A DNA stretch of 13,222 nucleotides from Candidatus Thorarchaeota archaeon. GTDB taxonomy: Archaea > Asgardarchaeota > Thorarchaeia > Thorarchaeales > Thorarchaeaceae. Below are positions 1-13,222 of the stretch, piece by piece. The notes under the pieces were generated by a model. That model made no database searches. It was not told where the DNA came from and was given only the letters and a program-made list of their open reading frames with translations. Within the stretch, counting starts at the first letter, position 1; each line of letters opens with the position of its first letter. Location of the stretch: assembly GCA_016839605.1 (NCBI GenBank), contig JAEOTX010000135.1, positions 1 through 13,222 of the forward strand, given 5' to 3'. Position numbers and translations under genes: made by a program.

Positions 1-995
1 ACACCACATGATACCTCAAGCAGGGCTTGGCTGCGACCAACTTCGCGGAGAACGAGCAATCACCAGTCTAGATAAGCCTTTTACCCCTTCGCGCAGGTCA
101 ACGGAACGAGTTGCACGTCAGAACCCTTTCGGGCCTCCACCGAGCTTTCGCCCGGCTTCACCCTGCCCACGCCAAGATCGACTGGTTTCTCGTGTCACGG
201 GAGTGACTTCACGCACTTATCACACGTCGCCCCTCACTGCAAGCAGCTGCGGGCTTGTCGCTTTCGCTTCGTTTACGGCTTAATGCCTTATCCTCGCCAC
301 GCCCATGAACTCCCTGGCCCGTGTTTCAAGACGGATGACGCCGACGCGGTCCACTCGAGTCCTACTGCAGGATTGCTCCTGTTTCGTTCCCCGAGTATCT
401 ACCCTTTTAGTCGGCATCCTTTGTATAGATTGCTGGTTTCAGGTGCTTTTCACCCCGCTTCCGCGGCACTTTTCAACTTTCGCTCGCGCTACATAGTTTA
501 CTATCGGTTTGGTTGAGTATTTAGGCTTCGCAAATTGCACTTGCGACTTTCACGCGAGAAAACCAACCCGCGCTACTCGGGATCTCTAAACATGCCCGTG
601 TTTTACGCCTACGGGGATGTCACCCTCTGTGTCACGTCATTCCAGACGACTTCAGCTTAGACACGTCGGCAATAAGTTCAGAGCCCACACACCACATCCC
701 CCTGTACTCTTCGCACAGGGATTCGGTTTGGCCTTTTCCGCTTTCGCTCGCTGTTACTCACGGAATCACTATTGTTTTCTTTTCCTGCCCGTACTAAGAT
801 GCTTCAGTTCCGAGCGTTCCCCTTCCAGTTGTGACACTGGAATGATGGGGGGTATTAGCCCCAACCAGGAAGTCCAATTCGGGGATCCTGGGATCAATGG
901 CTTCATGCGCCTACCCCAGGCTTTTCGCAGCTCGTGACGCCCTTCATCGGCTAACCAACCAAGTCATCCACCAGCAACCGTACAGCATATTGTAG
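1..995 (-). rRNA. rrl: 23S (LSU) rRNA, 5' portion (domain I and start of domain II); continues beyond the left edge of the window
   Basis: The reverse complement has universal LSU motifs: GGTGGATG..CCGATGAAGG (972-940), GGAACTGAAGCATCTTAGTAC (~811-791), ACCGATAGTAAAC..GCGAAAG (~508-478) and the archaeal/eukaryotic-type CCGTCTTGAAACACGGGCCAGGGAG (334-310). Helix-2 pairing GGTTGCTGG (979-971) with CCAGCAATC (436-428) is present. The 5' end was estimated from the GGTGGATG motif (+/-15 nt). Confidence 0.96.
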
Positions 996-1300
996 TCTTA
1001 CTCTTGTGACCGGCACAGTATTACCTGTTGTCAAGGAGTTGTAACCATCGGTTAGTTACGTTTGTAACCCTAATCTTAGGTTGTGTATCAAAATCGAACA
1101 TACATTTTGTGTACGTATGCCATCATCCTCTGCAATCTCCACAACAAGACCTTGAGGTGCACAGCACCAGCCTGTTGTATCGACGGTCCTCCATCGGGAA
1201 TGACTCCGTTCTACGGTCTGGTCCCGATGGGCCTTTCTCCATGCTAACCACGGAGTCCGGACCTCACGCGCACACACCACTGTGTATGTGGGGGTGCGCT
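996..1300 (-). other. Structured 5' external transcribed leader of the 23S pre-rRNA
   Basis: Dense run of inverted repeats: 1268-1273/1294-1299; 1185-1189/1259-1263; 1191-1199/1222-1230; 1141-1148/1171-1178; three 5-bp hairpins at 1042-1080. Several stems need G-U pairs that only work on the - strand. Confidence 0.65.
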
Positions 1301-1322
1301 CAGTCAGCCGTCAAGACTGACG

Positions 1323-1333
1323 TTTTAAAGCTT
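1323..1333 (-). promoter_or_regulatory. Putative BRE/TATA promoter (proximal) for the 23S rRNA
   Basis: The - strand reads AAGCTTTAAAA, about 25 nt upstream of the first leader hairpin (starting at 1299). Confidence 0.55.
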
Positions 1334-1437
1334 GCTGTACGCCGAGGTTCGCCAGAACGGCAAATAGCGACCTTCTATAGCCGCCAAACAACGCCTTCTC
1401 TACTCGACGAAAGCACACTATCTGCCCATCAATCCAA

Positions 1438-1447
1438 GATAAAGCTT
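1438..1447 (-). promoter_or_regulatory. Putative second (distal) TATA-like promoter for the 23S rRNA
   Basis: The - strand reads AAGCTTTATC, sharing AAGCTTTA with the proximal site 114 bp away. Both are preceded by GGCGTA. Confidence 0.4.
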
Positions 1448-1498
1448 ACGCCCGATGCACATCTAGTCACTCATTATGAATGAATTTACAGATTCCAG

Positions 1499-2203
1499 CT
1501 ACATTGAGAGTGATTTCTTCTGAAATTCTATCAGTTCCTTAATGCCACTCGCTGCAAGATCAAGCAGTTTGTCAAGGTCCCCTCTCACAAAAGTTGCACC
1601 CTCGCCAGTTCCCTGGACCTCGACGAACTCGTCATCGCGCATCACGATGTTCATGTCAACATCAGCTTGAGCGTCTTCCACATAGCAGAGGTCAAGAAGC
1701 AGTTCGCCTTTCACTACTCCGACGCTCACCGCAGCAACATGACCGAGTAGGGGAGCCTCAGCAATCATGTCCATGTCGATCATATATTGAAGCGCATCGC
1801 AGAGAGCTACATACGCACCGGTTATTGCAGAAGTTCTTGTACCCCCATCAGCTTGAATCACGTCACAGTCTATCCTGATGGTATTCTCGCCTAAGCGTTT
1901 CATATCTACAGCAGTCCGTAGAGACCGCCCAATGAGCCTTTGAATCTCAGCGCCCCTGCCGCTCATCCTGTTTCGATGAGTGCGATCTTCTGTTGCCCTT
2001 GGGAGCATTGCATATTCTGCTGTGACCCACCCTTGCCCTTGGTTATTGAGCCAACCTGGAACGCCTTCTTCCACGGTGGCTGTGCATATCACTTTGGTTT
2101 CTCCTGTGCTTATCAGCACCGATCCCTCGGGATACTTTAGAAAGTCTCGAACAATCTCTACGGGTCTAAGAGCGGCATTTGCACGTCCATCTAGTCGGGT
2201 CAC
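1499..2203 (-). CDS. rph: Ribonuclease PH, bacterial type (phosphorolytic 3'-5' exoribonuclease)
   Basis: Motifs RxDGR..LRPV, EGSVLISTGETKVICTA, GWVTAEYAMLPRAT, EIQRLIGRSLR, DCDVIQADGGTRT, LDLCYVED..ADVDMN, EVQGTGE. The ORF is open to 2233; the GTG at 2203 (VTRLDGR, with GGAG upstream) is the likelier start. Confidence 0.95.
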   Translation of the reverse strand: MTRLDGRANAALRPVEIVRDFLKYPEGSVLISTGETKVICTATVEEGVPGWLNNQGQGWVTAEYAMLPRATEDRTHRNRMSGRGAEIQRLIGRSLRTAVDMKRLGENTIRIDCDVIQADGGTRTSAITGAYVALCDALQYMIDMDMIAEAPLLGHVAAVSVGVVKGELLLDLCYVEDAQADVDMNIVMRDDEFVEVQGTGEGATFVRGDLDKLLDLAASGIKELIEFQKKSLSM

Positions 2204-2344
2204 TGACTGCAACTCCGATATTCTGGGTCGCATCTCTTCCTATTATTTCCCTCGGGCGAAGACTTCCACTAGATATCTTTATTGACAAGCTTTTGCAAAT
2301 AGTGACCCAGGCTGATACAGTATACACCACGAGGTGGACATGTC

Positions 2345-3367
2345 GTGTTTGACCTACAAAAGAAGTTCAACGCAGCACTGAAAGACACGGTTGATGAGTG
2401 GAAGAAACACGACAGTGTGAAAGGCATCTTTGTCTATGGTTCATTCGCGCGTGGCACAATAACCAACAACTCAGATCTAAATATCGGCGTGATTTGGGAT
2501 GACGTGGAATCTCCAGCGCCGCTTCTAGCTGAGCACAAAGGCATACGTGTTGACATGACCTTTATCACCCCATCAAAGATGGATGATGTTCTTGAGGGGA
2601 AAACCAGCGATGCAATGCGTATAGCGCAAGTTGTCGCAATGTTAAGAAATGCGAAGGTCCTTCATGACAAGCGCGGAGCCCTCAAGAAGTGGCAGAAACT
2701 CGCGTCAGAGTTTGTCTGGTCTGAACAAGCTATCGACAACGTAAAGGATAGCGCATTACTTGCTCTTAGCAATGCTGCGAAATCCGCTGACGCAGGAGAC
2801 ATCATTAGTGCTATTCATGACTTGCGAAGCGCGCTCTTTGACCTTGGTAGAGTCATCGTGATGAAGAATAACTATTTTTCAATCATGAAGCCATCAGAAG
2901 TCCTCACAGAAATTCGTCTTTTGGACCCATTGACGTACCCACTCTTTCTCCGTACATTCAAACTAAAAGGAATGGAGGAAGAGGAACTCATGGAAACCCT
3001 CGGAGAACTTGAGGAATGGATAGGAATTGCAGAGGGGCGCATTAGTGAGGGAACAGCAGATGAGTATGCAACAGATCTACTAACAAGAGCCCAACGAGAA
3101 TATCACGGCGCAAGGAATTGCACTCTCTCTGGAGACTACGAGCTCGCGGTACTCGAGATGAGACGGGCAGTAGACCACATAGGGAGGACATTATTGGCCC
3201 TTGCAGGTAAGTTTGAGGTTGATCAGACGAGTTTTGTTCAGGAACTCAAGGAGAATGAGCCTGTCTTTTACGAGAACATCCTAGTACGCTATGGCGCGTT
3301 TGAGTTCACAACCAAGGGAGTTCAGCGAAGTATTGGAGAAGCGCAGTTCATAGCCCAGCGTCTGTGA
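2345..3367 (+). CDS. Pol-beta-like minimal nucleotidyltransferase (MNT) domain fused to two HEPN-like helical domains
   Basis: N-terminal GIFVYGSFARG..SDLNIGV..RVDMTF. Two HEPN-like starts: ALLALSNAAKSADAGDIISAIHDLRSAL and LLTRAQREYHGARNCTLSGDYELAVLEMRRAV. C-terminal VRYG..FTTKGVQRSIGEAQFI. RBS GAGGTG at 2331-2336 before the GTG. Confidence 0.8.
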   Translation: MFDLQKKFNAALKDTVDEWKKHDSVKGIFVYGSFARGTITNNSDLNIGVIWDDVESPAPLLAEHKGIRVDMTFITPSKMDDVLEGKTSDAMRIAQVVAMLRNAKVLHDKRGALKKWQKLASEFVWSEQAIDNVKDSALLALSNAAKSADAGDIISAIHDLRSALFDLGRVIVMKNNYFSIMKPSEVLTEIRLLDPLTYPLFLRTFKLKGMEEEELMETLGELEEWIGIAEGRISEGTADEYATDLLTRAQREYHGARNCTLSGDYELAVLEMRRAVDHIGRTLLALAGKFEVDQTSFVQELKENEPVFYENILVRYGAFEFTTKGVQRSIGEAQFIAQRL

Positions 3368-3419
3368 AAAGTCAGGTCTGGTTAGATTGATTAGGTGAGA
3401 AAGGGTTCACTCGAATCGC

Positions 3420-3968
3420 GTGGAAATGAAGTCTGACTCTAAGTCCGAGATTTTGAAACTCACCAGTGTGACATTGAGCCGTGAAAAGCAAGACAAGATT
3501 GACCTGGAATTCGAGAAGTACACCAAGGCAGTCAACTATGTCATTAGAGCCATCCTGAAAGACCACATTTCGTCAGGTAAGAAGACCTTCGATCTCCTCG
3601 AGGAGGACATCTCCAACCGGTTTGACCGAAGACCCCAGTTTGTGAGGGATGTTGTGAAGACGGCGTGGGGGGAAGTTCAAGAGCATCGAAGACTGGCTCA
3701 GACAGTCAGGAGCATGCGGGATAAAGCACCCGTCTTTAGAGCAGGGAGGATGATCTTCTCTCAGCCAATTGTGTCAGTTAATGAGAAGGGTCTGCAGCTA
3801 CAGCTTGCTGACGGAGAGAAGGTGCCAATACCATTCGATAAAAGGAGTCGGAATCGGTTGATAGAAGAACTCGAGTCAATTGTTCGAGGAAAAGCAGCAT
3901 TCGGAAGAGTTAGGCTGACTTGGAACAAGGAAGGGTACATGGACATCGACATTCGCACAGAGGGCTGA
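3420..3968 (+). CDS. TnpB/Cas12f-like N-terminal (WED/REC) protein lacking the RuvC and zinc-ribbon region
   Basis: Segments follow the order seen in IS200/IS605 TnpB N-termini: LKL..LSREKQDKI..EFEKYTKAVNYVI; RFDRRPQFVRDVVKTAW; KAPVFR..MIFSQPIVSV..LQL..EKVPIPF; GKAAFGRVRLTWNKEGYMDIDIR. The stop falls where the RuvC-I (xGxDxG) motif would begin. Start is GTG 3420 or ATG 3426. Confidence 0.65.
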   Translation: MEMKSDSKSEILKLTSVTLSREKQDKIDLEFEKYTKAVNYVIRAILKDHISSGKKTFDLLEEDISNRFDRRPQFVRDVVKTAWGEVQEHRRLAQTVRSMRDKAPVFRAGRMIFSQPIVSVNEKGLQLQLADGEKVPIPFDKRSRNRLIEELESIVRGKAAFGRVRLTWNKEGYMDIDIRTEG

Positions 3969-3984
3969 GGACTAGGTTGTATGG

Positions 3985-4875
3985 TCACTCTTCAAATTCC
4001 CAATATGTCAGTGCACCAGAATAGTCAGTTGTGTAGAATCCAGGATTTTTGGGATTCCAGCCTATGGAAGAAATGCCAGTGAGCAGGCGGTCTTGGATCT
4101 TCTCCTTCCGCGTTTTAGTGGACCACACTCGAACAGACCTATCCCAGCTCCCAGAAACGAGATGCCTGTCAGATGGATTAATTGCAAGAGATGTCACAAT
4201 ATCCGAATGACCCTTCATCTCAATGGCATTATTTGGGTCCTCAGGATCAATCGAAAGAATAGTGCCACTGTGTAATCCCAGGAACACTTGCGAACTATCA
4301 TGTGTCACTGCTATTGACCTGATTCGTTCCTTCTGTTTGGTGAGTCTACCTAATGATTCAAAGCTACTGAGGTCGAAGAGGTTGCATTCTCCATCCCAAG
4401 ACGCCGTTACCAGCACAGATTCATCACGTGTGAAGGCAAGGCCTGAAACATCACTTCTGTGAGCTTGAATGTTCCTGTAATTCTTCATGCTACTTGAATA
4501 GAACACCTTCACTTCTCCATCTCGTGACCCTGCCGCGCCCCTAGCTTTCTCAGTTCCAACTGTAAGAGCTTTGACTTCAGAATTGTGCCGAAGGACAGGA
4601 ATTTCCTTTGCTGGGCCAGTTGAGGTCCATCTACGTGTAGTGCAGTCCCAGCTTGTTGATACTAGTCCTTTTCCTCCATCAATGAAAGACACAGCAGATA
4701 CGGCAGCCTCATGTCCCTTCAACGTTCTCTTTTGATTTCCAGACACTGGGTCAAGAATGATGATATGAGAGTCCATCGTGCCGCATGCAATCTGCTTTCC
4801 TCGGGGGTCCACTGCCATGCATGTCAGTGGGGGGATTTGAGTCCCAGTAGGCCTGAAAAGAACGGTTTTCTTCAA
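3985..4875 (-). CDS. Stand-alone WD40 beta-propeller protein (7 repeats)
   Basis: Repeats such as GHEAAVSAVSF..LVSTSWDCTTRRW, AHRSDVSGLAF..LVTASWDGECNLFD and GHSDIVTSLAI..LVSGSWDRSVRVW; seven blades can be counted. TTG start with a GGTGA RBS. Confidence 0.93.
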   Translation of the reverse strand: MKKTVLFRPTGTQIPPLTCMAVDPRGKQIACGTMDSHIIILDPVSGNQKRTLKGHEAAVSAVSFIDGGKGLVSTSWDCTTRRWTSTGPAKEIPVLRHNSEVKALTVGTEKARGAAGSRDGEVKVFYSSSMKNYRNIQAHRSDVSGLAFTRDESVLVTASWDGECNLFDLSSFESLGRLTKQKERIRSIAVTHDSSQVFLGLHSGTILSIDPEDPNNAIEMKGHSDIVTSLAINPSDRHLVSGSWDRSVRVWSTKTRKEKIQDRLLTGISSIGWNPKNPGFYTTDYSGALTYWEFEE

Positions 4876-4941
4876 CCTTATTCACCGTGAGGAGTACTTT
4901 CAAAGGCTAATCTCATATCTGACTCTAAAAGGTGTGTAACA

Positions 4942-5940
4942 TCATTCGCTCTTCAGCCGAGTATATGCAAATAGAGCTGCAACCCCTGTTACTCCAAGGA
5001 GTAGGACGTAAAAGGTGACTGGAAAGTCGGGTGGGAAAGTCGTTGTCACTCCAGAGTGGGTCACAAGAAAAGTTTCGACTACTTCTCCTACAATCTGTAG
5101 ACTCTCAGCACTGCATCTCTCAGGAATGTCATCAACAGTATGCCATGATGAGGGAAAGGGATTGTGAATGATGTCCACAGCAGGAATTCCAACGTCTAAG
5201 AATGGTCGATGATCATCAAGAATTGAGTTTCCAAGGGAGTCTAGAAAAGTGTCCTGATAGCCCATTTCTGCTGCTAGTGACCATATCTCATCTTGAAGAG
5301 ATCTTGTTGAACCACGTTCACGTGGTAGTCGTAGTTCACTGTCCCCAATCATGTCCAGAAGTATCATGGAGCTAATCAAAGGGATACGGTTTGAGTCTAG
5401 CTGGTTGACATAGTATGTTGAACCTACAATCCAATCCCAATCATCAATATAACCAGAGTCTTCAGCATCAAAGAAAATGAATTCAACATCATCTCTAACC
5501 TCAATAGGTAGCACACGTACCAATTCAAGAAGTGCTGCAGTCCCACTAGCACCGTCATTGGCACCTAAGACAGGCTTGTCATGATTTGCTTCGTCGGGAT
5601 CTTCGTCTGCTAGAGGTCGTGTGTCATAGTGTGCGCCTACAAGCATTGTAGCATTTCGTAAAGATCCATGCCATCCAATAATGTTGGCACATGACACATT
5701 CTGGTAGGCAAAGTTCTGAACGACTACCTCCCATCCATGACTTTCTAAGACTTCAACAATATATTGCCTGCAATTTGTCAGATTGTCAGATCCTGGTGGT
5801 CTAGGTCCAAAATCACATTGAGCAACAAGATGGGCCATAGCATTTGTTCCACTGAATTCAGGTATATGATCAACTTGCAGCATGGTCATGCTTGACAGGG
5901 GAAGTATTAGAAGCATTAGAATAGCCCAGGTAACTCTCAT
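4942..5940 (-). CDS. M28-family metalloenzyme, glutaminyl-cyclase-like, with signal peptide and C-terminal membrane anchor
   Basis: Motifs GAHYDTR, GANDGASG, FFDAED, LLDMIG, DDHRPFL, WHTVDD. Hydrophobic N-terminus (WAILMLLILPL) and C-terminal TM segment (FYVLLLGVTGVAALFAY). The ORF is open to 5955; the ATG at 5940 is the likelier start. Confidence 0.88.
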   Translation of the reverse strand: MRVTWAILMLLILPLSSMTMLQVDHIPEFSGTNAMAHLVAQCDFGPRPPGSDNLTNCRQYIVEVLESHGWEVVVQNFAYQNVSCANIIGWHGSLRNATMLVGAHYDTRPLADEDPDEANHDKPVLGANDGASGTAALLELVRVLPIEVRDDVEFIFFDAEDSGYIDDWDWIVGSTYYVNQLDSNRIPLISSMILLDMIGDSELRLPRERGSTRSLQDEIWSLAAEMGYQDTFLDSLGNSILDDHRPFLDVGIPAVDIIHNPFPSSWHTVDDIPERCSAESLQIVGEVVETFLVTHSGVTTTFPPDFPVTFYVLLLGVTGVAALFAYTRLKSE

Positions 5941-5988
5941 TCTTCCACAGTCCAATATTCAGCCATCTTCTCGACCCTATGAACCTTT

Positions 5989-7209
5989 TCAGGAGGAATG
6001 ATTCAGCCGCGCCCTCACACGCCGTTGGAGGAGTCTAGGAATCTCTCGTGGCAGGTCCTTCAAAACAGCAAGGGGAATAGCTGAGTATCCAATTTCGCCT
6101 CTAGCGATCTTTGCCATAATGTCAGAAGCTAGATGATACGATGCTGCCGTCTTGAGTACGGTCTCAGCAAAGAATGTGCCCTTAAGACCAGCCCATTCAG
6201 CCATTGCGAAGTTTGCCTCGAACTCCTTCTTGCAAAGACGCTGATATTGCTCAAGGTAGTGTCTATCGTAGCGGCCCGATTCTGCGGCTCTAGCTATCAC
6301 ATCTGCTGCATGAACTCCTGACCTCATAGCATAAGCAATACCCTCACCCATCATGGGATCTACAAAGCCTGCAGCATCTCCAACAAGAAGAGCGCGGTCT
6401 CGGACATTTATGCTTGAAATGCCATCAGCACCGAGGAAATGAACTCGACGTTTTTCAAGCTTGAGTGGGATTCCAATTCTTTTTTCCACCCTTCTTAGAA
6501 AGGAATCGAATGCAGGGCGAAGAGGATACATATGCACAGCTGCCCCAGCAATTCCAATGCATAGATGTTCCCTTTTTGGAAAGATCCATCCATATGCTAC
6601 ACGGCCTTCAACAGGTATTATCTCAAGAATGGATGGATTACCATTCAAAGCCTCTATGGCTCCATCTTCGCCTACGTAGAAGTCGCTCTCCATCCCAAGT
6701 CCTACACGTTGGAGATTCTTTCTGGGAGGTCTCAGACCCAGCGTTCTCGCAACTACAGAGTTTACGCCATCGGCTCCAACAAGATATTGAGCATCGAGTT
6801 CTTTGCCATTTGCAGTGAGAACAGAAACACCATCTGGACTAGTTGATGCATGCTTTACCCTTGTCATCTCCCTTAGGTCAGCACCAGCATCTGCAGCCCT
6901 ATGTGCGAGGAACTCATCAAATCGATCTCTAAATGTCGTTATTCCAATCAGCTTCTCCGAAGAGAATTCGATTCCTTCTCCACTTGGGAGGATAAACCTG
7001 AGGCCATGAATACGTCGTTCTGCAAGACCAGCTGGAAATCTGTCTCGTAGAATATGGAGTCCCCTGTACATGACGGCTCCACCACAAGGCTTCTCTCTGG
7101 GGTGCTTCGACTTCTCAAGGAGAAGTGTCTTGAGACCAGCTTTAGCACAATCGTGTGCAGTGATAGAGCCTGCCGGACCGGCGCCCACAACTATTACATC
7201 GTAAGACAA
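5989..7209 (-). CDS. Geranylgeranyl reductase family FAD-dependent oxidoreductase
   Basis: DVIVVGAGPAG, KPCGG, VGADGVNS, YGWIFPK, VGDAAGFVDPMMGEGI. Confidence 0.92.
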   Translation of the reverse strand: MSYDVIVVGAGPAGSITAHDCAKAGLKTLLLEKSKHPREKPCGGAVMYRGLHILRDRFPAGLAERRIHGLRFILPSGEGIEFSSEKLIGITTFRDRFDEFLAHRAADAGADLREMTRVKHASTSPDGVSVLTANGKELDAQYLVGADGVNSVVARTLGLRPPRKNLQRVGLGMESDFYVGEDGAIEALNGNPSILEIIPVEGRVAYGWIFPKREHLCIGIAGAAVHMYPLRPAFDSFLRRVEKRIGIPLKLEKRRVHFLGADGISSINVRDRALLVGDAAGFVDPMMGEGIAYAMRSGVHAADVIARAAESGRYDRHYLEQYQRLCKKEFEANFAMAEWAGLKGTFFAETVLKTAASYHLASDIMAKIARGEIGYSAIPLAVLKDLPREIPRLLQRRVRARLNHSS

Positions 7210-7286
7210 TTTTCCGGGGTTCCTCCCACTAAAAGCTCCTTCGGAATTCGCTACTGACCTGAGCTACGTAGAATACTCATTTAGAT

Positions 7287-8117
7287 TTACTGTTCAGTGA
7301 CAACTTCAAAGACTGCATTGTCACTCCAATCGGTATCGATTCCTAGTTTTGCACGAATTAGGGCCTCGTAGTCCGGATTTATCTCATAGCCGATAGAGTT
7401 GCGTCCAAGTTTCCTTGCCACTGCCATAGTGGTCCCAGTGCCTGCAAAGGGATCAAGCACTGTGTCCCCAACAAAGGAGTAGAGTCGAATACATCTGCGT
7501 GGAAGCTCCTCTGGAAAGGGAGCTGGATGCTTCTCATGTTTTGCTGATGCAGGCTGGAATTCCCAAATCGAGTTTTGAGCCCAATTGGTAAACTCTTCAT
7601 GACTGATTACTGATAATTCTTTGACTTCGCTGCTGACTGGGGAACGCTTGCCTTCCTTTGAGAAGACTACAATCCACTCATAGGGGTACGACGCCAAGAT
7701 GTTTGGAGGATGGGGATAAGATCCCCACGAACTGAATCGCGCCGCCTTGCGCTTGTCCCAGATAAATAGAGAATGAAAATACACGTTGCCTAACGAGTCC
7801 ATGAAGGCTTCTAGGTCAGTAATGACTGTCTTTGTAATCCGGCGTTTGAATTTCGATTTCTTCCCGGTTAGAAAGAGTGGCATGATGTTTATTATCAGCT
7901 TGCCATCAGGGACTAATTTCTTCACACACTCCTTAAACACCAAACAAATCTCTGAGAGGTATTCTTCATAGGATGCAGATCCTAGGCCAATTTCCACATT
8001 ATCGCCATAGTCCTTTAGACGCCAGTATGGAGGGGAGGTCACAATGAGATGAACGGATTCGTCCATCACATGGTCCATGCTTCGGCTGTCTCCAATGACG
8101 ACTAGGTGCTTTGTCAT
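7287..8117 (-). CDS. Beta-class amino (probably N4-cytosine) DNA methyltransferase
   Basis: Motif IV VTSPPY near the N-terminus; HPAPFPEELPRRCI..VLDPFAGTGTT (motif I) ..GYEIN near the C-terminus. Confidence 0.92.
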   Translation of the reverse strand: MTKHLVVIGDSRSMDHVMDESVHLIVTSPPYWRLKDYGDNVEIGLGSASYEEYLSEICLVFKECVKKLVPDGKLIINIMPLFLTGKKSKFKRRITKTVITDLEAFMDSLGNVYFHSLFIWDKRKAARFSSWGSYPHPPNILASYPYEWIVVFSKEGKRSPVSSEVKELSVISHEEFTNWAQNSIWEFQPASAKHEKHPAPFPEELPRRCIRLYSFVGDTVLDPFAGTGTTMAVARKLGRNSIGYEINPDYEALIRAKLGIDTDWSDNAVFEVVTEQ

Positions 8118-8121
8118 GGCG

Positions 8122-9216
8122 TCATCTGCTCCGACTTAGGTCCCAAACAATGACCTGCTCCTTTCGTTGCGTATTGTTGATCTTGTCCCATATCTTGCTA
8201 GGAGTATTCGTGTACGCTCTCTCAACGGTATATGACTCACTCCAAGGTGCAATCTCTGCAAAGAACTCAGACCCACGAATCAGTTCCCTGCGGACCATTC
8301 TGTCCCCAACAACAAATATGATGATGGCGTCTTTCTTAACGACTCTGTCAATCGCCTTCAGAGCCCTTGCCATATCATCTCTATAAGTCGAGTATCTCTG
8401 AATGAGTCCATCACGAATGAGTCCACGGTCCACCCCCAGAACCCCTAGGACTATCTTCGTGTAGTACCCAGTGTAGTCAAGCGCGTCAAAATAAGGCGGA
8501 CTGGAGTAAACAACATCAATAGAGTTCTCAGGGACTATGTCGTGGATTCGCCTGGCATCATACTGATGGATTGTCGCGTGAGGACTGCCTCTGACATAGA
8601 TAATGTGTTTGTGGGCTTTGCGCATCAATATCTTGTAGAAGTCTACTTGACGAAGAGGTGGATTGAGTTTTCCAATTGATGTTGAGGTCCAAATCCAGCC
8701 ATTGCATGCACGAGCTGCGACGCAGATAGAACCGTAAAAGACCGACTTCTCATATGCAGAAAAGTCTTCAGACACGTTTAGCATTCTCATTATCTGATCT
8801 GCAGTGTCTGGATGAAAGTAACAAGCAGGCTCGGCCGGCATAGAGGGGTATGATTTTGATTTTTGTGCGGCTTCTACCGCCGATTCTAAATGATTTATCG
8901 TCGCATCCATATTGACCCGTTCGGTTTTACCACGCGCTACTGTACATGCAAGGGGATTGTTATCAACTCCAATGGCGCTCATCCCTTTTGCCTGCGCTTC
9001 ATAGATAATTGTGCCTGTCCCACAGAAGGGGTCTAAAAGGGTGTTAGTGGAACGGAGCTGACTTATGACATGAGCCGCATCAATAGCAGACATCTTTCCG
9101 CGATAGGGGTATATTCCGTGGATTGATTTGGGATTGCTTACCTTCTCAAAACTCCTTAGGGTGATGGTCGGACTAATCCTAGTGGGGCTGTATCCTGAAA
9201 CCCTAGTTTCCTGCAT
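8122..9216 (-). CDS. Alpha-class amino (probably N4-cytosine) DNA methyltransferase
   Basis: HGIYPYRGKM (motif X), LLDPFCGTGT (motif I), GVDNNPLA, then DAR..IDVVYSSPPY (motif IV) and FVVGD. The ORF is open to 9294, overlapping the upstream gene, but the ATG at 9216 is the likelier start. Confidence 0.88.
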   Translation of the reverse strand: MQETRVSGYSPTRISPTITLRSFEKVSNPKSIHGIYPYRGKMSAIDAAHVISQLRSTNTLLDPFCGTGTIIYEAQAKGMSAIGVDNNPLACTVARGKTERVNMDATINHLESAVEAAQKSKSYPSMPAEPACYFHPDTADQIMRMLNVSEDFSAYEKSVFYGSICVAARACNGWIWTSTSIGKLNPPLRQVDFYKILMRKAHKHIIYVRGSPHATIHQYDARRIHDIVPENSIDVVYSSPPYFDALDYTGYYTKIVLGVLGVDRGLIRDGLIQRYSTYRDDMARALKAIDRVVKKDAIIIFVVGDRMVRRELIRGSEFFAEIAPWSESYTVERAYTNTPSKIWDKINNTQRKEQVIVWDLSRSR

Positions 9217-9225
9217 GGTAGGAGG

Positions 9226-9268
9226 AGTATGACTCAGTGTACTAAAACATGTGTAATAGTATGAGTCA
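9226..9268. promoter_or_regulatory. Repeated AGTATGA(C/G)TCA motifs flanking a TATA-like box upstream of the methyltransferase pair
   Basis: AGTATGACTCA at 9226-9236 and AGTATGAGTCA at 9258-9268. The - strand TTTTAG (9247-9242) lies between them, about 26-31 nt before ATG 9216. Confidence 0.4.
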
Positions 9269-9286
9269 ATGATTGTGCTAGTCAAG

Positions 9287-10048
9287 TCAACCATAGAATC
9301 GATCTATAGCCTTGATTGTAGCCTCTATCTCTTTCTCTACTGCTTCGACCAACAGAGGGTCCTGTTCGCCTGACTCTTCAGACTCGTCAGTCTGCTCGAC
9401 CTTCTGGGCTCCATGTAGATTACCATCACAGGCTAAAATGGAGGCTGCTTCGAGCCCACGGGTTGTAGCAAATACAAAGAGAAAGGAACTCTCCATCTCC
9501 ACACACTTTACTTTGGCTCGAGTCCACATGTCTAGCGGATTCTTTTCAGGACTGACATAGTACACATCACTAGTCCAACAGATGCCTTGATGAATCCTAT
9601 CGGCAGGTAGCAGTTTTGATATCTCTTCATGCAGAGCAACTGCCCATTTTGGAGTTGCCACTGCAGGGTATTCCATGGGCGCGTAGTTGAGTCCAGTTCG
9701 TTCATCACGAATCGCACCCGTAGGAACGACTACATCACCAGTCTTCACAGAGGGTTCAATTCCGCCACATGAGCCAATTCGGATAATGACTTCAGGGCCA
9801 AGCCTCGACAGTTCTTCAACACAGATATGAGTTGAAGGAGTGCCTATACCGGTGCCAGCCATTGTAACTGCGACTCCCTTTGGAGTGTATGCACGATATG
9901 TGACAAATCCGCGATACCGCGCAACCTCTTCAGGATCCTTCATCTTGGATGCCATGACGGGAATTCTGTCTGGATTTCCTGCGATCAGTACTACCTTTTC
10001 GACATCGCCTTCGCCTACTCTCAGATGTGGTTGTATTCTACGCTTCAA
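9287..10048 (-). CDS. Nucleoside phosphorylase (uridine/purine nucleoside phosphorylase, NP-I family)
   Basis: QPHL, AGNPDR, GTGIGTPS, IRIGSCGG, GAIRDE, VEMES. TTG start with an AGGTGA RBS. Substrate specificity cannot be resolved. Confidence 0.9.
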   Translation of the reverse strand: MKRRIQPHLRVGEGDVEKVVLIAGNPDRIPVMASKMKDPEEVARYRGFVTYRAYTPKGVAVTMAGTGIGTPSTHICVEELSRLGPEVIIRIGSCGGIEPSVKTGDVVVPTGAIRDERTGLNYAPMEYPAVATPKWAVALHEEISKLLPADRIHQGICWTSDVYYVSPEKNPLDMWTRAKVKCVEMESSFLFVFATTRGLEAASILACDGNLHGAQKVEQTDESEESGEQDPLLVEAVEKEIEATIKAIDRFYG

Positions 10049-10135
10049 CTAACTCACCTGACACTAGTATTCTTGTGCTTAACCTGCTTTTCACTGTTAG
10101 GCTAAGCGTATGTCAAGAGGGCAGGATTGGAATGT

Positions 10136-10324
10136 TTACGCATTAAGGATTCGACCAAAAATGCAGTCAGCGCATACCCATTTGTTGCCCACATTAAACA
10201 CCCGACCAAATCTGGGAAGCATCGTTCCGCAGTCATTGCATGGAGTAATCTTGGATTTGAAGTTCTCTGTAAGAAACACCAAGAAAAGAGACAGCATGTT
10301 CATTCTTGGTTTTGTGACCTGCAA
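10136..10324 (-). CDS. Small C4 zinc-finger microprotein
   Basis: PCNDCG..x..WVCADC (two CxxC pairs). Possible RBS GAAGTGA before the TTG at 10324; the start could be further downstream. Confidence 0.6.
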   Translation of the reverse strand: MQVTKPRMNMLSLFLVFLTENFKSKITPCNDCGTMLPRFGRVFNVGNKWVCADCIFGRILNA

Positions 10325-10451
10325 ATGTATTCACTTCCTCAGACCTATCCTAAGATGCCGCCTTATTAGGCCCTATAGAAGTCAATCCCTGCAGCGTTTA
10401 CAACAGATACGCTTTTCTTGTTGAGAGCATCAGGCGTAGGGTGAACTGACA

Positions 10452-10835
10452 ATGACAGAGAGCGTCAAATTCCAATACTACTGCTATCGATGCGGTGCGT
10501 TGAACTCTCTAGACCTCCCAAGTCCAACGGCGCCTGATTACCATCACACAGATCTCAAGTGTAGTTCATGCGGAGATGGCACGAGGCTGATGATAAGTAA
10601 CTGTCCCAATGAAAGCTGTACTCATTATGTGTATTGGATAAATGATCTTTCGATTCCCGATCTTGTAAAGAGCTTTGCGAAGTACATGACAACCAACATG
10701 CAAGCCTTGATAGACAAAGCTGCAATCCAAGGTGCAAGGCTAAGCATTGATACGCCAGATAAGTTCCAGATTCCAGCAGCCTGTCCTTGTGGTTCTCAGT
10801 TCAACGTCGAGATTGAAATTCCAGACTTGGATTAG
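10452..10835 (+). CDS. Uncharacterised double zinc-ribbon protein
   Basis: CYRCG, CSSCG, CPNESC and CPCG give 8 Cys in 4 pairs. GGGTGA RBS at 10439-10444. Confidence 0.8.
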   Translation: MTESVKFQYYCYRCGALNSLDLPSPTAPDYHHTDLKCSSCGDGTRLMISNCPNESCTHYVYWINDLSIPDLVKSFAKYMTTNMQALIDKAAIQGARLSIDTPDKFQIPAACPCGSQFNVEIEIPDLD

Positions 10836-10850
10836 AAAGTGAGCTCCACC

Positions 10851-12149
10851 TCAACAGTAGTAGTATCCAATGAAACTCTCCTGTTTTGGAAACAGCGTGG
10901 CGATCAGCGACTTGACTGGACCGGCAACTAGGAAATCGATATTCTGATGCCCGAGTTCTTCTAAGTCATACTGACCAAGGAGTAGTCGAACGAAGTCATT
11001 GGGCGGCGTTCTGAAGCTCGTATTCTTTCCATCTTCATGGATTCCGAGATCTCTGATCTGTCTTATCTTGCCTCCTTGGAAATCCAATACGTAGCAGTGT
11101 CTGTATGTGTTGATTGTTACTTCTTGAGTAAGACCCTCGAACATGGATTTTCGTAGACGTTTTTCTAGCACAGGTCGGACTCGTTTCAAGAATCGGACCA
11201 TATCTGGGATACGAAGTTGGTGCTTCCATCCTTTACTTAGAACACCTTGCAAGTCCAGTCCAACCTTCGAGAGATTACTGACCAGAGCTCCTGAGAGAGC
11301 AAGCCGTGGAAGGTTCTTCTCTGCACATTGCTGTCGCAGGTACTCTAAGGTCCGTCTTACACCATCATATGTCCTGATGCTACTCTCTATCACATCAAGA
11401 AATCCAGCTGCAGGGTCAGTTTTGTTCTCTCTAACAACCAATCGAAAGTATCCCTCGATATCCAGGCCTCTCTTGACAATATAGGTGGTGAACTCCTTAT
11501 CATACTCTCTTCTTGCTCGCTCCTGAATCTCCCACAACTCTGTATTTCTTGCTGTAGATATTAGCGTGCAGCGCCTCAATTCCTCATACAGATTCATTAT
11601 GGTATCAAGATCTTTCTTGGCTGCACGACGCACCGAGAGTTTCATCCAACCAGGTTTTTCCTTAGGGGAAACGGTTGGTATCTGACTAGGCATCAGAAAT
11701 ACAGATCGCCATGCTGGAATGAGAAAGTCATATCCAAACTGGCGATAATAGTAAGGGATACCCTGAATGGTAGAGATCTCATATTTCCCGCGATGAAACT
11801 CCCTCTCAAAGAATTCCCTGTAGAGCGCTCTGATGAGCCCCATATTGCGGTACTCTGGCAGGGTCCCAACGAAACCTAGCTCTAGATTTCGCAGAGGAAT
11901 ACCTTCATAGGCCCAAGTGCTGGGAATCCCATTTAACGTGGAAACAATAACTCCCTTATCTGAATCACGAATGAACCAGTTCATCTCCCTGCCAAATCCT
12001 GGCAGGTTCTCAATGATCCGCCTCAGTTCTTCGCCATCCTGAGGCTCGTGTATCGTCGAGTTGAATGTGATAAGCTCTTCAAGTTCCTCATCCGTTTCGA
12101 CGGTGCCAAACTCAAGACCATCAGGCAAAGGGGCGATTGTTTTCATCAT
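10851..12149 (-). CDS. Eis-like GNAT acetyltransferase (tandem GNAT domains plus SCP2-like C-terminus)
   Basis: LGFVGTLPEYRNMGL (acetyl-CoA motif A), GIPYYYRQFGYD, LRIPDMVRFL, and C-terminal FVRLLLG..LIATLFPK. The ORF is open to 12248; the ATG at 12149 (GAAGTGA upstream) avoids overlap with mig. Confidence 0.88.
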   Translation of the reverse strand: MMKTIAPLPDGLEFGTVETDEELEELITFNSTIHEPQDGEELRRIIENLPGFGREMNWFIRDSDKGVIVSTLNGIPSTWAYEGIPLRNLELGFVGTLPEYRNMGLIRALYREFFEREFHRGKYEISTIQGIPYYYRQFGYDFLIPAWRSVFLMPSQIPTVSPKEKPGWMKLSVRRAAKKDLDTIMNLYEELRRCTLISTARNTELWEIQERARREYDKEFTTYIVKRGLDIEGYFRLVVRENKTDPAAGFLDVIESSIRTYDGVRRTLEYLRQQCAEKNLPRLALSGALVSNLSKVGLDLQGVLSKGWKHQLRIPDMVRFLKRVRPVLEKRLRKSMFEGLTQEVTINTYRHCYVLDFQGGKIRQIRDLGIHEDGKNTSFRTPPNDFVRLLLGQYDLEELGHQNIDFLVAGPVKSLIATLFPKQESFIGYYYC

Positions 12150-12219
12150 AGTGTTGTCACTTCGTTGGTGTTTCTGGTATTGGGTCAGGAACATTTCTGC
12201 AAACCCACATACTGCAATA

Positions 12220-12885
12220 TCATTTTGGGTTGGCCGTGTAAAAGTCACAGGAACAAGATAGGGGACAGATGTTGCAACGAGGATTCCGTCTCAGGCATGT
12301 AGTGCTCACCAGATCGATTATTCCCCAATACAACCTCTTGTCTTGCGATTCGGCAAAGGTCCTCATGAATTCCCAAATCGCATTATCTGTAGGTCCTGAA
12401 ATTCCAAGCGAAAAGAGTCGATTCATGAGGTGGACCACATTACCATCTGCCAGGGGCTCAGAAGCACCAAAAGCGAAGTTCATCACAGCTGCAGCAGCAT
12501 AACGACCAACACCAGGAAGCGCCTCAAGGGATGCTAAGTCATTAGGGACTACTCCATTATGTTCTGTGAGCAATATCCTTGCCATCTGCTTCATATGATG
12601 TGCTCTCATTGTTTGAAGTCCAACAGTAGATAGAGCCCTTTCAATTGTGGACTTCCGAGCCTTTGCCAATCGCTCCAGAGAGTCGAACCGACCTATGAAC
12701 TTCTCATATATTCGAGACACTGCCGCTGCAGTAGTTCTTCTCAGAAGCATCTCTGCAATCAGAATCTGAAATGGATTGCTGGTAATTCGCCATGCGAAAT
12801 CACGACCACTTTTCTCGTACCACTTGATGATTACTCTCCGAACAAATCTTAATCGATTACCATTGAGAAGCGGCGCTTCTCCCAT
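12220..12885 (-). CDS. mig: HhH-GPD DNA glycosylase, MIG type (T:G/U:G mismatch glycosylase), with [4Fe-4S] motif
   Basis: RDFAWR..PFQILIAEMLLRRTT (RRT as in Mig.MthI, where MutY has QQT), HhH LPGVGRY, ADGN, and C-x6-C-x2-C-x5-C (CLRRNPRCNICPLSCSC). Confidence 0.85.
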   Translation of the reverse strand: MGEAPLLNGNRLRFVRRVIIKWYEKSGRDFAWRITSNPFQILIAEMLLRRTTAAAVSRIYEKFIGRFDSLERLAKARKSTIERALSTVGLQTMRAHHMKQMARILLTEHNGVVPNDLASLEALPGVGRYAAAAVMNFAFGASEPLADGNVVHLMNRLFSLGISGPTDNAIWEFMRTFAESQDKRLYWGIIDLVSTTCLRRNPRCNICPLSCSCDFYTANPK

Positions 12886-12898
12886 GTCCTCGCCTCAT

Positions 12899-13222
12899 TC
12901 ATCCAAGCATGGACTTGATTCTCTCGACAATCTCATCGAGTGTTGCTACTACGGTTATGCCTTCCATCTCACGCAATCGAGACACGTTTTCGAGGTCAAC
13001 CTTTCTAGCCCTTATCTTGAATTTCTTTCCATTGGGTGCTACAGTTTCTATCTCTCCTGGAACCTGATCTACTGGTAGGAGAACAATAGGGGTCTTCCCT
13101 TTAGCGCACTGAGCCACTGCATTTGTGAGAAGTGTATCCTCAATCCCATAGGCAATCTTGGCTGCTGAGTTCGCAGTTAGGGGTGCCACAATAAGTAGGT
13201 CCCATTTGCCCATCTGAAGAGG
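12899..13222 (-). CDS. afpA: Archaeoflavoprotein AfpA family (HFCD flavoprotein), 3' part; the start is beyond the right edge
   Basis: GKWDLLIVAPLTANSAAKIAYGIEDTLLTNAVAQ..PVDQ..ETVAPNG..RKVDLENV..LREMEGI. The frame is open to the window end. Confidence 0.85.
   Translation of the reverse strand, partial: PLQMGKWDLLIVAPLTANSAAKIAYGIEDTLLTNAVAQCAKGKTPIVLLPVDQVPGEIETVAPNGKKFKIRARKVDLENVSRLREMEGITVVATLDEIVERIKSMLG

Follow-up and report, generated by a model that had tools for sequence, protein, structure and literature searches.

The window, by which we mean the whole 13,222-nt stretch analysed here (Candidatus Thorarchaeota archaeon, GCA_016839605.1, contig JAEOTX010000135.1, positions 1-13,222, forward strand), carries two co-oriented genes, A and B, which are divergent from the RNase PH gene rph and convergent on a gene for a WD40 beta-propeller protein (Table 1), an arrangement that an earlier note on this DNA had described correctly. 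That note had placed two + strand genes 52 nt apart within 2345-3968, and both ORFs exist, at 2345-3367 and 3420-3968 (GTG starts, 340 and 182 aa). Homologues of B, the closest of which are 180 aa long, start at the position of ATG 3426; B thus probably spans 3426-3968, which makes the A-B spacer 58 nt long. It also holds that A and B are the only + strand genes in the first 10 kb. The other long ORF there, 1028-1483 (+), was rejected as a gene: it sits in the pre-23S leader and is fragmented in relatives, and the leader is conserved as nucleotides (83% within the genus, ~70% across genera) and not as a reading frame.

Table 1. Features at the A-B locus (positions in the window)
Feature	Position	Strand	Evidence and remarks
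23S rRNA gene, archaeal, 5' part	1..995	-	Rfam RF02540, 780 bits, model positions 1-982; context
Pre-23S leader between rph and 23S	996..1498	-	Not protein-coding; context
rph, bacterial-type RNase PH	1499..2233	-	TIGR01966, 344 bits (cut-off 141.5); Pfam RNase_PH and RNase_PH_C; divergent from A
BRE/TATA-like motif TAGATAkCTTTATTGA, rph-A intergenic	2270..2286	.	Probable promoter of A
Gene A, KNTase-like Pol-beta NTase, helical domain and HEPN-like domain	2345..3367	+	340 aa, GTG start, acidic
Promoter-like element of B, ATTGATTAG	3386..3394	+	Conserved in the A-B spacer
Gene B, RuvC-less WED+REC lobe of TnpB/Cas12f	3426..3968	+	180 aa; 182 aa from GTG 3420
WD40 beta-propeller gene	3985..4875	-	Pfam WD40, E 8.5e-35; convergent on B; context

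Much of this neighbourhood recurs in relatives. Comparison of 15 family loci placed rph next to A in 14 and a full-length WD40 gene beside B in 13; G017 shows no more than a fragment of the WD40 gene, which is absent from locus G026 and from the three most distant loci. In 5 of the 8 related loci scanned, the 23S gene adjoins rph. In most loci the motif TAGATAkCTTTATTGA recurs at similar spacing 5' of A, and the most distant loci (L058, L062 and L063) are no exception. It is the probable promoter of A and possibly serves rph too, that is, in both directions.

Gene B and the recognition lobe of TnpB/Cas12f

The AF2 model of B (pLDDT 92) resembles one group of known structures. When it was searched against the PDB with Foldseek, the top 35 matches were all Cas12f, TnpB or Cas12k (E down to 2.5e-7), led by dCas12f 9n9c. 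VIA aligned 167 residues of B with residues 0-209 of AsCas12f at Z 14.8; its top 32 matches were all Cas12, TnpB or Fanzor, after which Z fell to 4.9, and Z ranged from 14.8 to 8.0 across 30 Cas12, TnpB or Fanzor chains (11.8 for TnpB 8h1j). Superposition on a full-length TnpB model gave a TM score of 0.80 and an rmsd of 2.1 Å. Sequence models gave fainter signals: TIGR01765, the TnpB N-terminal domain, matched B with 26.5 bits (E 4.7e-6; cut-off 47.25) and found 8 of the 25 members, and a Cas12f2 HMM weakly matched 7 of them (best E 1.1e-4), while sequence comparison of B with PDB proteins and Pfam returned no matches. The TnpB-like REC/WED protein announced in the earlier note is confirmed at fold level, and the structural matches identify the predicted fold of B, with high confidence, as the WED+REC recognition lobe of TnpB/Cas12f.

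B stops with the last WED strands, at residue 182, and no RuvC remnant was found downstream. Neither the Pfam OrfB_IS605 domain nor the zinc-ribbon domains had a match at B, and a genome search for RuvC/TNB with guided_TnpB NF040570 matched eight other contigs and nothing on the contig of the window. Transposon ends and flanking repeats were likewise missing from a repeat search around the A-B pair, and B is single-copy in the genome. Only 22 matches to B were found among 1.84 billion representative proteins, none of them with the RuvC part. Two candidates for longer forms were discarded: a word search for a longer B relative matched only a chimeric-looking HlyD protein, and a 377-aa form of B (P0233) carries C-terminal repeats instead of RuvC. 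HMM and hhalign comparison of the B profile with the genome's own full-length TnpBs, of which there are at least eight, gave no detectable similarity; B therefore did not arise by recent copying of a resident element.

The earlier note had described B as a guide-binding half lacking its nuclease. The lobe without RuvC bears this out in part; the guide RNA was not found. In the window, 16 nt separate B from the WD40 gene, and the space 3' of B measures 16-64 nt in all loci seen. Rfam searches around the A-B pair returned nothing at gathering score and nothing at E ≤ 1, and dS of B shows no depression. The B locus contains no guide or omega RNA and has no room for one; a guide might be encoded elsewhere in the genome.

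Searches detected B in 71 of 76 genomes from a single Thorarchaeota family, whereas the other 29 Asgard families, represented by 224 genomes, yielded no case. Across 16 genera its ORF is intact at 34-83% identity with 21 invariant residues, and its dN/dS of 0.07-0.2 is like that of neighbouring housekeeping genes. The protein is basic (pI 9.6; median of members 9.95), and at 18 positions at least 90% of residues are Lys or Arg. Clusters of short 'transposase (fragment)' sequences that have this fold are common in other lineages (Bacillota, Cyanobacteria), and some B members are annotated by JGI as 'predicted transposase'. Such labels would suit a decaying, functionless fragment of a dead TnpB gene. 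However, the intact ORF, the selection on it and the missing RuvC remnant all speak against decay, and with the conservation and selection data this reading is refuted; we regard it as almost certainly wrong. B is a genuine, repurposed (domesticated) gene under purifying selection.

Gene A, a nucleotidyltransferase with a HEPN-like domain

A had been read as an MNT-HEPN-HEPN fusion, and two of these three domains found support. Pfam NTP_transf_2 and Polbeta match the NTase domain in 19 of 19 members. The C-terminal domain (residues 208-340) is HEPN-like by fold (2hsb, Z 14.2) and by a weak Pfam HEPN match in 6 of the 19 members (best E 1.1e-5), the window's A scoring 17-19 bits, under the cut-off of 22. 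The middle helical domain (105-207) had no family match. As a whole, the AF2 model of A (pLDDT 90) matched 3c18 (Z 15.9, 212 residues aligned) and ANT(4') 6nlt (Z 14.8, 225 aligned), and sequence similarity to KNTase/3c18-type proteins is confined to the NTase motif (E 0.0014-0.08).

Among 121 A homologues, the hG[GS] motif is kept (G32 in all 121, S33 in 116), and the triad of catalytic carboxylates, D44-D46-D70 (DxD ... D), is intact in 110 (91%). With hG[GS] and three carboxylates in place, the A family belongs, by these residues, to the MNT proteins of the Pol-beta superfamily. In the window's A the second Asp is replaced by Asn (D-L-N), as in 7 close relatives among the 121, and the resulting D-N-D triad makes its activity uncertain, although dN/dS of A stays at 0.04-0.05. 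The HEPN RNase motif Rx4-6H is not conserved: Arg is present in 113 of the 121 homologues, but His in only 3, with Ser, Met, Thr or Asn elsewhere; the window's A reads RRAVDH at this position. The idea that A is an RNA-acting enzyme scaffold therefore lost its support from the motif and is left with the fold as its basis. By structure, the nearest relatives of A are aminoglycoside and lincosamide NTases and MntA, whose targets are small molecules or proteins and not RNA.

MNT and HEPN architecture could also place the locus among toxin-antitoxin or defence modules of the MNT-HEPN (type VII) kind, to which B would have been added as a sensor or effector. The pairing of an acidic A with a basic B would agree with this, as would a weak match of A to the curated MntA model NF047752 (26 bits, cut-off 60) and PADLOC matches of A, all of the generic NTase-motif type (PDC-S09). 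However, PADLOC had no match for B, the HEPN domain is without the conserved His of Rx4-6H, and MNT and HEPN are fused and form no two-protein pair. Moreover, A and B make up a single-copy, near-universal and vertically kept core locus at a fixed site, quite different from a patchy island gene. We consider a type VII module very unlikely.

Linkage and transcription of A and B

In 71 of 72 B-bearing genomes, A is followed on its own contig and strand by B, at a distance of 45-323 nt between the matches, and this adjacency and co-orientation spans 16 genera; the two genes were thus not found unlinked in relatives, which the earlier note had named as evidence against a module. The pair is intact despite rearranged flanks: G026 is without WD40 and M28, in G028 rph is 6.6 kb off, and distant loci are without WD40. 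Synteny breaks numbered 0 at the A|B junction compared with ~4-5 at neighbouring junctions, a difference that is not significant. As synteny across the family extends to the whole ~10-kb block (rph, A, B, WD40, M28, FAD, PNP), the adjacency of A and B is weak evidence of coupling.

A sister family (G037) has A without B. Neither B nor a remnant of it was found 3' of the A-like gene there, where the genes are those of a small membrane protein, profilin, YggU and PGM, and A therefore has an autonomous function. A tree of A, made to order gain and loss of B, left the backbone unresolved, with G037 on a long branch. A further Asgard family, f22, has distant A-like genes, which were set aside because their context is unrelated. 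Rate covariation of A and B over 16 loci and 7 genes (raw 0.70, residual -0.41) did not exceed that with unrelated neighbours, in a weak test of 36 genome pairs, and complex prediction for A and B (score 0.00, mark 0.32) counts neither for nor against binding.

Of 32 distinct A-B spacers, 29 contain ATTGATTAG when up to two mismatches are allowed; it is missing at the three most distant B loci. In 28 of the 29 spacers it precedes codon 13 of B by 54-63 nt (85 nt in the remaining one), and its distance from the stop codon of A varies between 5 and 230 nt. As ATTGATTAG is tied to the start of B and not to the stop of A, and as no conserved Shine-Dalgarno sequence was found 5' of B, B looks like its own transcription unit; from these spacer features, A and B are likely transcribed separately. 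A terminator-like run of at least five T occurs in just 2 of the 32 spacers. Considered as a regulon or general promoter word, ATTGATTAG showed no genome-wide enrichment (17 copies, where 9-mers of equal composition have a median of 18). A/T-rich boxes similar to it precede tRNA genes in the same genome. Another word of the spacer, GTTCACTC-like and recalling the aCas1-TnpB motif (PMC10691335), was dropped because it is unconserved among relatives.

Conservation of this spacer element might also indicate that B is a guide-free, sequence-specific DNA-binding regulator of the locus (of B, A or rph) that acts through a TAM-like site such as ATTGATTAG. In TnpB structures (e.g. 8exa, 8h1j, two of the fold matches of B) the WED/REC lobe reads the TAM, and it is this lobe that B has kept; the 9-mer conserved 5' of B contains TTGAT, and a related TAGAT...ATTGA lies 5' of A. 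However, the position of ATTGATTAG suits an ordinary BRE/TATA element, like the boxes before tRNA genes, and the promoter motif of A is equally conserved, so that an operator need not be invoked. The lack of genomic enrichment and the absence from the most distant B loci also weigh against a regulator, which we think unlikely.

Possible coupling of A and B and comparison with known systems

We tentatively favour an explanation in which, in the ancestor of a single Thorarchaeota family, a TnpB-type element inserted just 3' of an older NTase gene. The element would then have shed RuvC and zinc finger, which make up its nuclease half, together with transposon ends and guide RNA, and the remnant would have been retained as B, a small, basic, single-copy protein that consists of the WED+REC lobe only and may bind nucleic acid without cutting it. 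Expression of B would start mostly at a short-leader promoter of its own, ATTGATTAG, which lies ~31 nt 5' of the ATG, with a further contribution of read-through from A, which we propose because the spacer is usually without a terminator-like T-run. A and B may share a nucleic-acid substrate that B recognises and to which A transfers nucleotides; with RNase PH encoded divergently and a 23S gene adjacent, an RNA 3' end would be a probable candidate. Taken whole, this account of an exapted TnpB lobe that cooperates with A is a plausible one, though we would stop short of calling it probable. Fold, clean truncation, purifying selection, a single-copy fixed site, restriction to one family and placement behind A are established for B; the weakest link of the explanation is the functional coupling of A and B, which we likewise rate as plausible and not as probable. 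A more specific version, in which B is a targeting subunit that directs A to a DNA or RNA site for sequence-directed nucleotidylation (tailing or marking), perhaps in rRNA/tRNA 3'-end processing with RNase PH, and finds this site through its TAM-reading surface or a guide encoded elsewhere, appears quite improbable.

A and B might instead be independent neighbours, B a domesticated stand-alone nucleic-acid binder with a promoter of its own and A an autonomous enzyme, with their adjacency an old insertion site preserved because gene order in this family is mostly stable. This would account for the fixed spacing of ATTGATTAG from the B start, the occurrence of A alone in the sister family, the functionally unrelated genes of the syntenic block and the lack of any particular covariation in rate. 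It fits less well with a pair that is almost never separated, even where both flanks are rearranged, with a spacer that is short and terminator-poor, or with the linkage of other exapted TnpBs to their partners (PMC10691335). We see independent neighbours as a serious possibility, yet a somewhat doubtful one.

If B does cooperate with A, as in the explanation we favour, the pair would be the first TnpB-derived system with a nucleotidyl-transfer output, as opposed to cleavage, transposition or transcription control. If it is not coupled to A, B is still a clean case of how radically a transposon nuclease can be domesticated, here in the archaea most closely related to eukaryotes. That an Asgard family keeps the recognition lobe alone as a selected core gene shows that the WED+REC half can be useful to its host in its own right, and B is predicted to be a compact (180 aa) natural module for nucleic-acid recognition.

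For each gene, known systems share part of the architecture. KNTase/ANT(4') and the uncharacterised 3c18 (YgxA-like) have in common with A the NTase and helical substrate-binding architecture, whereas A has an additional HEPN-like C-terminal domain. MntA-HepT (type VII) shares the MNT and HEPN folds (7bxo, 7ae9 and 8xdj were among the matches of A); in contrast to this mobile and patchy system, A has its domains fused, its HEPN RNase motif unconserved and a single-copy core position. With TnpB (IS200/IS605; ISDra2 8exa/8h1j) and Cas12f (AsCas12f 8dzj), B has the N-terminal WED-REC-WED lobe in common, but it is without RuvC, TNB/zinc finger, omega RNA, transposon ends and TnpA, and it is single-copy and immobile. 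To our knowledge, a RuvC scaffold and a guide RNA are common to all previously described exapted proteins of the TnpB/Cas12 type (Cas12k, Cas12m, TldR, dCas12f-sigmaE), and a domesticated RuvC-less TnpB lobe seems to be undescribed in the literature searched. The closest parallels are TldR and dCas12f-sigmaE, nuclease-dead, exapted and immobilised TnpB/Cas12f derivatives beside a fixed partner gene (PMC10691335; bioRxiv 10.1101/2023.11.30.569447), which retain an inactivated or C-terminally trimmed RuvC and a downstream guide RNA (PMC10691335). In the census of exapted TnpBs, where such proteins sit beside functional partners, neither the word nucleotidyltransferase nor the word HEPN occurs (PMC10691335). 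Like TldR and dCas12f-sigmaE, B is TnpB-derived, immobilised and kept by its host; unlike them, it has lost the whole nuclease lobe, leaves no room for a guide and has a nucleotidyltransferase as its candidate partner.

Fold and conservation of gene B

Genes A and B lie between the RNase PH gene (rph) and a WD40 gene on contig C60 (13.2 kb), which the window covers in full and which is part of a 3.08-Mb metagenome-assembled genome that is 80% complete. Names carried by homologues assign it to the Thorarchaeota, a group of Asgard archaea. Re-checking of the ORFs confirmed the coordinates, orientation and 52-nt A-B spacing of the earlier note. Homologues of B start at the position of the ATG at 3426, which makes a protein of 180 aa and a spacer of 58 nt probable.

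Features of the contig around genes A and B
Feature	Position	Strand	Basis
23S rRNA gene, 5' third	1-995	-	
Probable pre-23S leader between rph and 23S, 503 nt	996-1498	-	
RNase PH gene (rph), bacterial-type	1499-2233	-	TIGR01966, 344 bits
rph-A intergenic region	2234-2344		
Conserved motif within it	2270-2286		
Gene A, 340 aa	2345-3367	+	ORF
Gene B	3420/3426-3968	+	ORF
WD40 gene, convergent with B	3985-4875	-	
M28 peptidase		-	
FAD oxidoreductase		-	
Two DNA methyltransferases	7287-9294	-	N6_N4_Mtase; D12/N6-type
PNP		-	

A Pfam search gave no match for B, and the NCBIfam models for the TnpB N-terminal domain (TIGR01765, E 4.7e-6) and Cas12f2 matched it below threshold, as they matched 8 and 7 of 25 family members, respectively. 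An AlphaFold2 model built from 25 homologues was confident (pLDDT 92), and all 35 Foldseek PDB matches at E<=0.001 were Cas12f, TnpB, Cas12k or other Cas12 chains. An independent all-against-all structural scan aligned B with AsCas12f residues 0-209 (Z 14.8, 167 residues, rmsd 3.3 A) and ISDra2 TnpB (Z 11.8); rows 1-32 were all Cas12, TnpB or Fanzor, after which Z falls to 4.9. Among ESM-Atlas models, a full-length TnpB superposes with B at TM 0.80 (rmsd 2.1 A). On these matches, B is the WED+REC recognition lobe, stopping where RuvC would start, in agreement with its earlier description as a TnpB-like REC/WED protein lacking the nuclease. Only 16 nt separate the stop codons of B and WD40. A curated TnpB model found nothing on C60 and at least 8 full-length TnpB genes elsewhere in the genome; no flanking repeats were found at the locus, and an Rfam search around B returned no RNA. 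The remaining parts of a TnpB element are thus missing here.

B is a working gene and not a wreck. Present in one copy in the window's genome, its ORF is intact in 16 genera (34-83% identity, 21 invariant residues), with dN/dS of 0.07-0.2, comparable to the WD40 and M28 neighbours. B proteins carry a strong positive charge (median pI 9.95, net charge +12), with Lys or Arg making up at least 90% of residues at 18 positions. When 301 Asgard genomes were searched with a profile of B, 71 of the 76 genomes in one Thorarchaeota family had the gene, the other five each being at most 88% complete, and it was missing from all 224 genomes sampled from 29 further Asgard families. Among 1.84 billion representative proteins the profile matched only 22, all of them members of the B family.

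Some genera (loci of genomes G022, G023, G025, G030 and G031; for example L050:8280-8978) encode a longer B of about 232-240 aa, in which some 55 extra residues follow the second REC helix (alignment A1 of B, columns 74-134); this lineage-specific expansion recalls the REC size differences between TnpB and Cas12f. One 377-aa member, P0233 (L062:6001-7134), sits in the same rph/A/B/M28 context, and its C-terminal half holds about four ~40-residue repeats (RPWE..L..I.N) and no nuclease.

The window's genome also encodes long TnpB-like proteins of about 560-610 aa with a common N-terminus (contigs C7, C220, C80 with two copies, and C57; loci L066-L070) and two canonical TnpBs of about 410 aa (C45, C84), none of them like B in sequence. 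As the B profile likewise shows no sequence similarity to the resident full-length TnpBs, capture of its TnpB ancestor is old.

Domains and catalytic residues of gene A

The earlier reading of A as an MNT-HEPN-HEPN fusion held in part. NTP_transf_2 and Polbeta matched all 19 aligned members and HEPN matched the C-terminal domain in six, but the middle helical domain had no family match. Fold matches of the model (pLDDT 90) include 3c18, an NTase-like protein that is uncharacterised (Z 15.9), the kanamycin nucleotidyltransferase ANT(4') at Z 14.8, and HEPN proteins that stand alone (2hsb, Z 14.2). A is acidic (pI about 5.1), and its catalytic carboxylates are D-D-D in 110/121 homologues. Asn takes the second position in the window's A and six close relatives (five D-N-D), the third Asp being also missing in two of those six; despite this Asn, dN/dS of 0.04-0.05 indicates very strong constraint. 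The HEPN Arg is kept in 113/121 homologues, and the His of the Rx4-6H RNase motif occurs in only 3/121, so the window's RRAVDH is not a family feature. HEPN-based RNA cleavage is accordingly not expected of A.

Linkage of A and B

A and B share contig and strand, with B downstream and 45-323 nt between matches, in 71 of 72 B-bearing genomes, so that the unlinking in relatives which the earlier note listed among refuting outcomes was not seen. In the exception, G189 (480 contigs, 74% complete), the matches (contigs C377 and C255) are not co-oriented and both genes are split at contig ends; misassembly is likelier than true rearrangement. The pair also persists where flanks differ: in G026, which has lost the WD40-M28 side, in G028, where an insert of 6.6 kb separates rph from A, and in the three most divergent loci, all without WD40. 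T5+ runs, the kind that ends archaeal transcripts, occur in only 2 of 32 distinct spacers, making read-through from A into B likely.

Although this retention and the scarcity of terminator-like runs argue against A and B being independent neighbours, synteny across the family extends over the whole ten-gene block, whose genes lie on both strands and have unrelated functions, so conserved adjacency carries little weight. Within that block, the methyltransferase pair, adjacent genes present in G015, G004, G012 and G035 and missing from other relatives, is a variable insert in an otherwise stable arrangement.

Independence is also favoured by the motif ATTGATTAG, found in 29 of the 32 spacers. 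Its distance upstream of codon 13 of B is 54-63 nt in all but one of these, which puts it about 31 nt from the ATG, whereas its distance downstream of A's stop ranges from 5 to 230 nt. It resembles A/T-rich boxes upstream of tRNA genes in the window's genome, where it shows no genome-wide enrichment; its simplest reading is as a BRE/TATA element belonging to B, from which a transcript with a short leader would be made. A promoter-like motif of A is conserved just as strongly. TAGATAkCTTTATTGA, between the divergent rph and A, is partly palindromic (AGATATCT) and strongly conserved, out to the most divergent loci. It probably serves both genes as a bidirectional BRE/TATA region, in which case A expression would be tied to rph and not to B. 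Moreover, the sister family (one genome, G037) has a clear A orthologue near rph and no B at the locus or genome-wide, and A and B show no covariation in evolutionary rate above background. Shortly after its A orthologue, G037 has a profilin-like gene (L055:7363-7749; Pfam Profilin, E 1.4e-5). Weighing both sides, a functional link between A and B is slightly the likelier reading, though at less than even odds, and that they are independent neighbours comes close behind. The two-gene module is put forward as a hypothesis.

Possible function and relation to known TnpB derivatives

From the retained lobe, the conserved basic surface and the loss of all catalytic parts, B is most likely a nucleic-acid-binding protein that does not cleave its ligand. 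If the genes are coupled, the likeliest arrangement would have B provide recognition and A nucleotidyl transfer on one common substrate. RNA would be favoured by context, given the conserved divergent rph-A promoter region and, in most genera, an adjoining 23S gene preceded by a conserved leader; against it, the nearest structural relatives of A modify small molecules or proteins. The locus itself offers no support for a guide-RNA-dependent mode, and a guide for B may be encoded elsewhere in the genome. A less likely option is that B is a regulator that binds DNA at a TAM-like site without a guide.

The leader (996-1498) shows nucleotide conservation of 83% within the genus and about 70% across genera. 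A 151-aa ORF in it (1028-1483, +) was rejected as a protein gene, its frame not being conserved in relatives. In several genera rph directly precedes the 23S gene, with no 16S within the scanned stretch. A related genus carries a group I intron within its 23S gene (L053:3554-3884; Rfam RF00028, 114 bits), and 23S matches of 3.4-3.9 kb in three of five related loci holding one (L053, L048 and L050) suggest inserts.

Full-text literature on TnpB together with HEPN and nucleotidyltransferase, with Thorarchaeota or with 'RuvC-less' yielded nothing relevant, and a PNAS 2023 census (PMC10691335) mentions neither a link to nucleotidyltransferases or HEPN nor a RuvC-free form. Clusters of short proteins with B's fold are present elsewhere, and several bear the label 'transposase (fragment)', so truncation as such is not unique. 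To our knowledge, the exapted Cas12k, Cas12m, TldR, dCas12f-sigmaE and SpoIIE- and RHH-linked TnpBs all keep the RuvC scaffold and, where studied, exapted TnpB/Cas12 derivatives also keep a guide. B is a domesticated TnpB that, unlike Cas12k, Cas12m, TldR and dCas12f-sigmaE, has dispensed with that scaffold, and what is new is the conservation of such a RuvC-less lobe as a core gene under selection.
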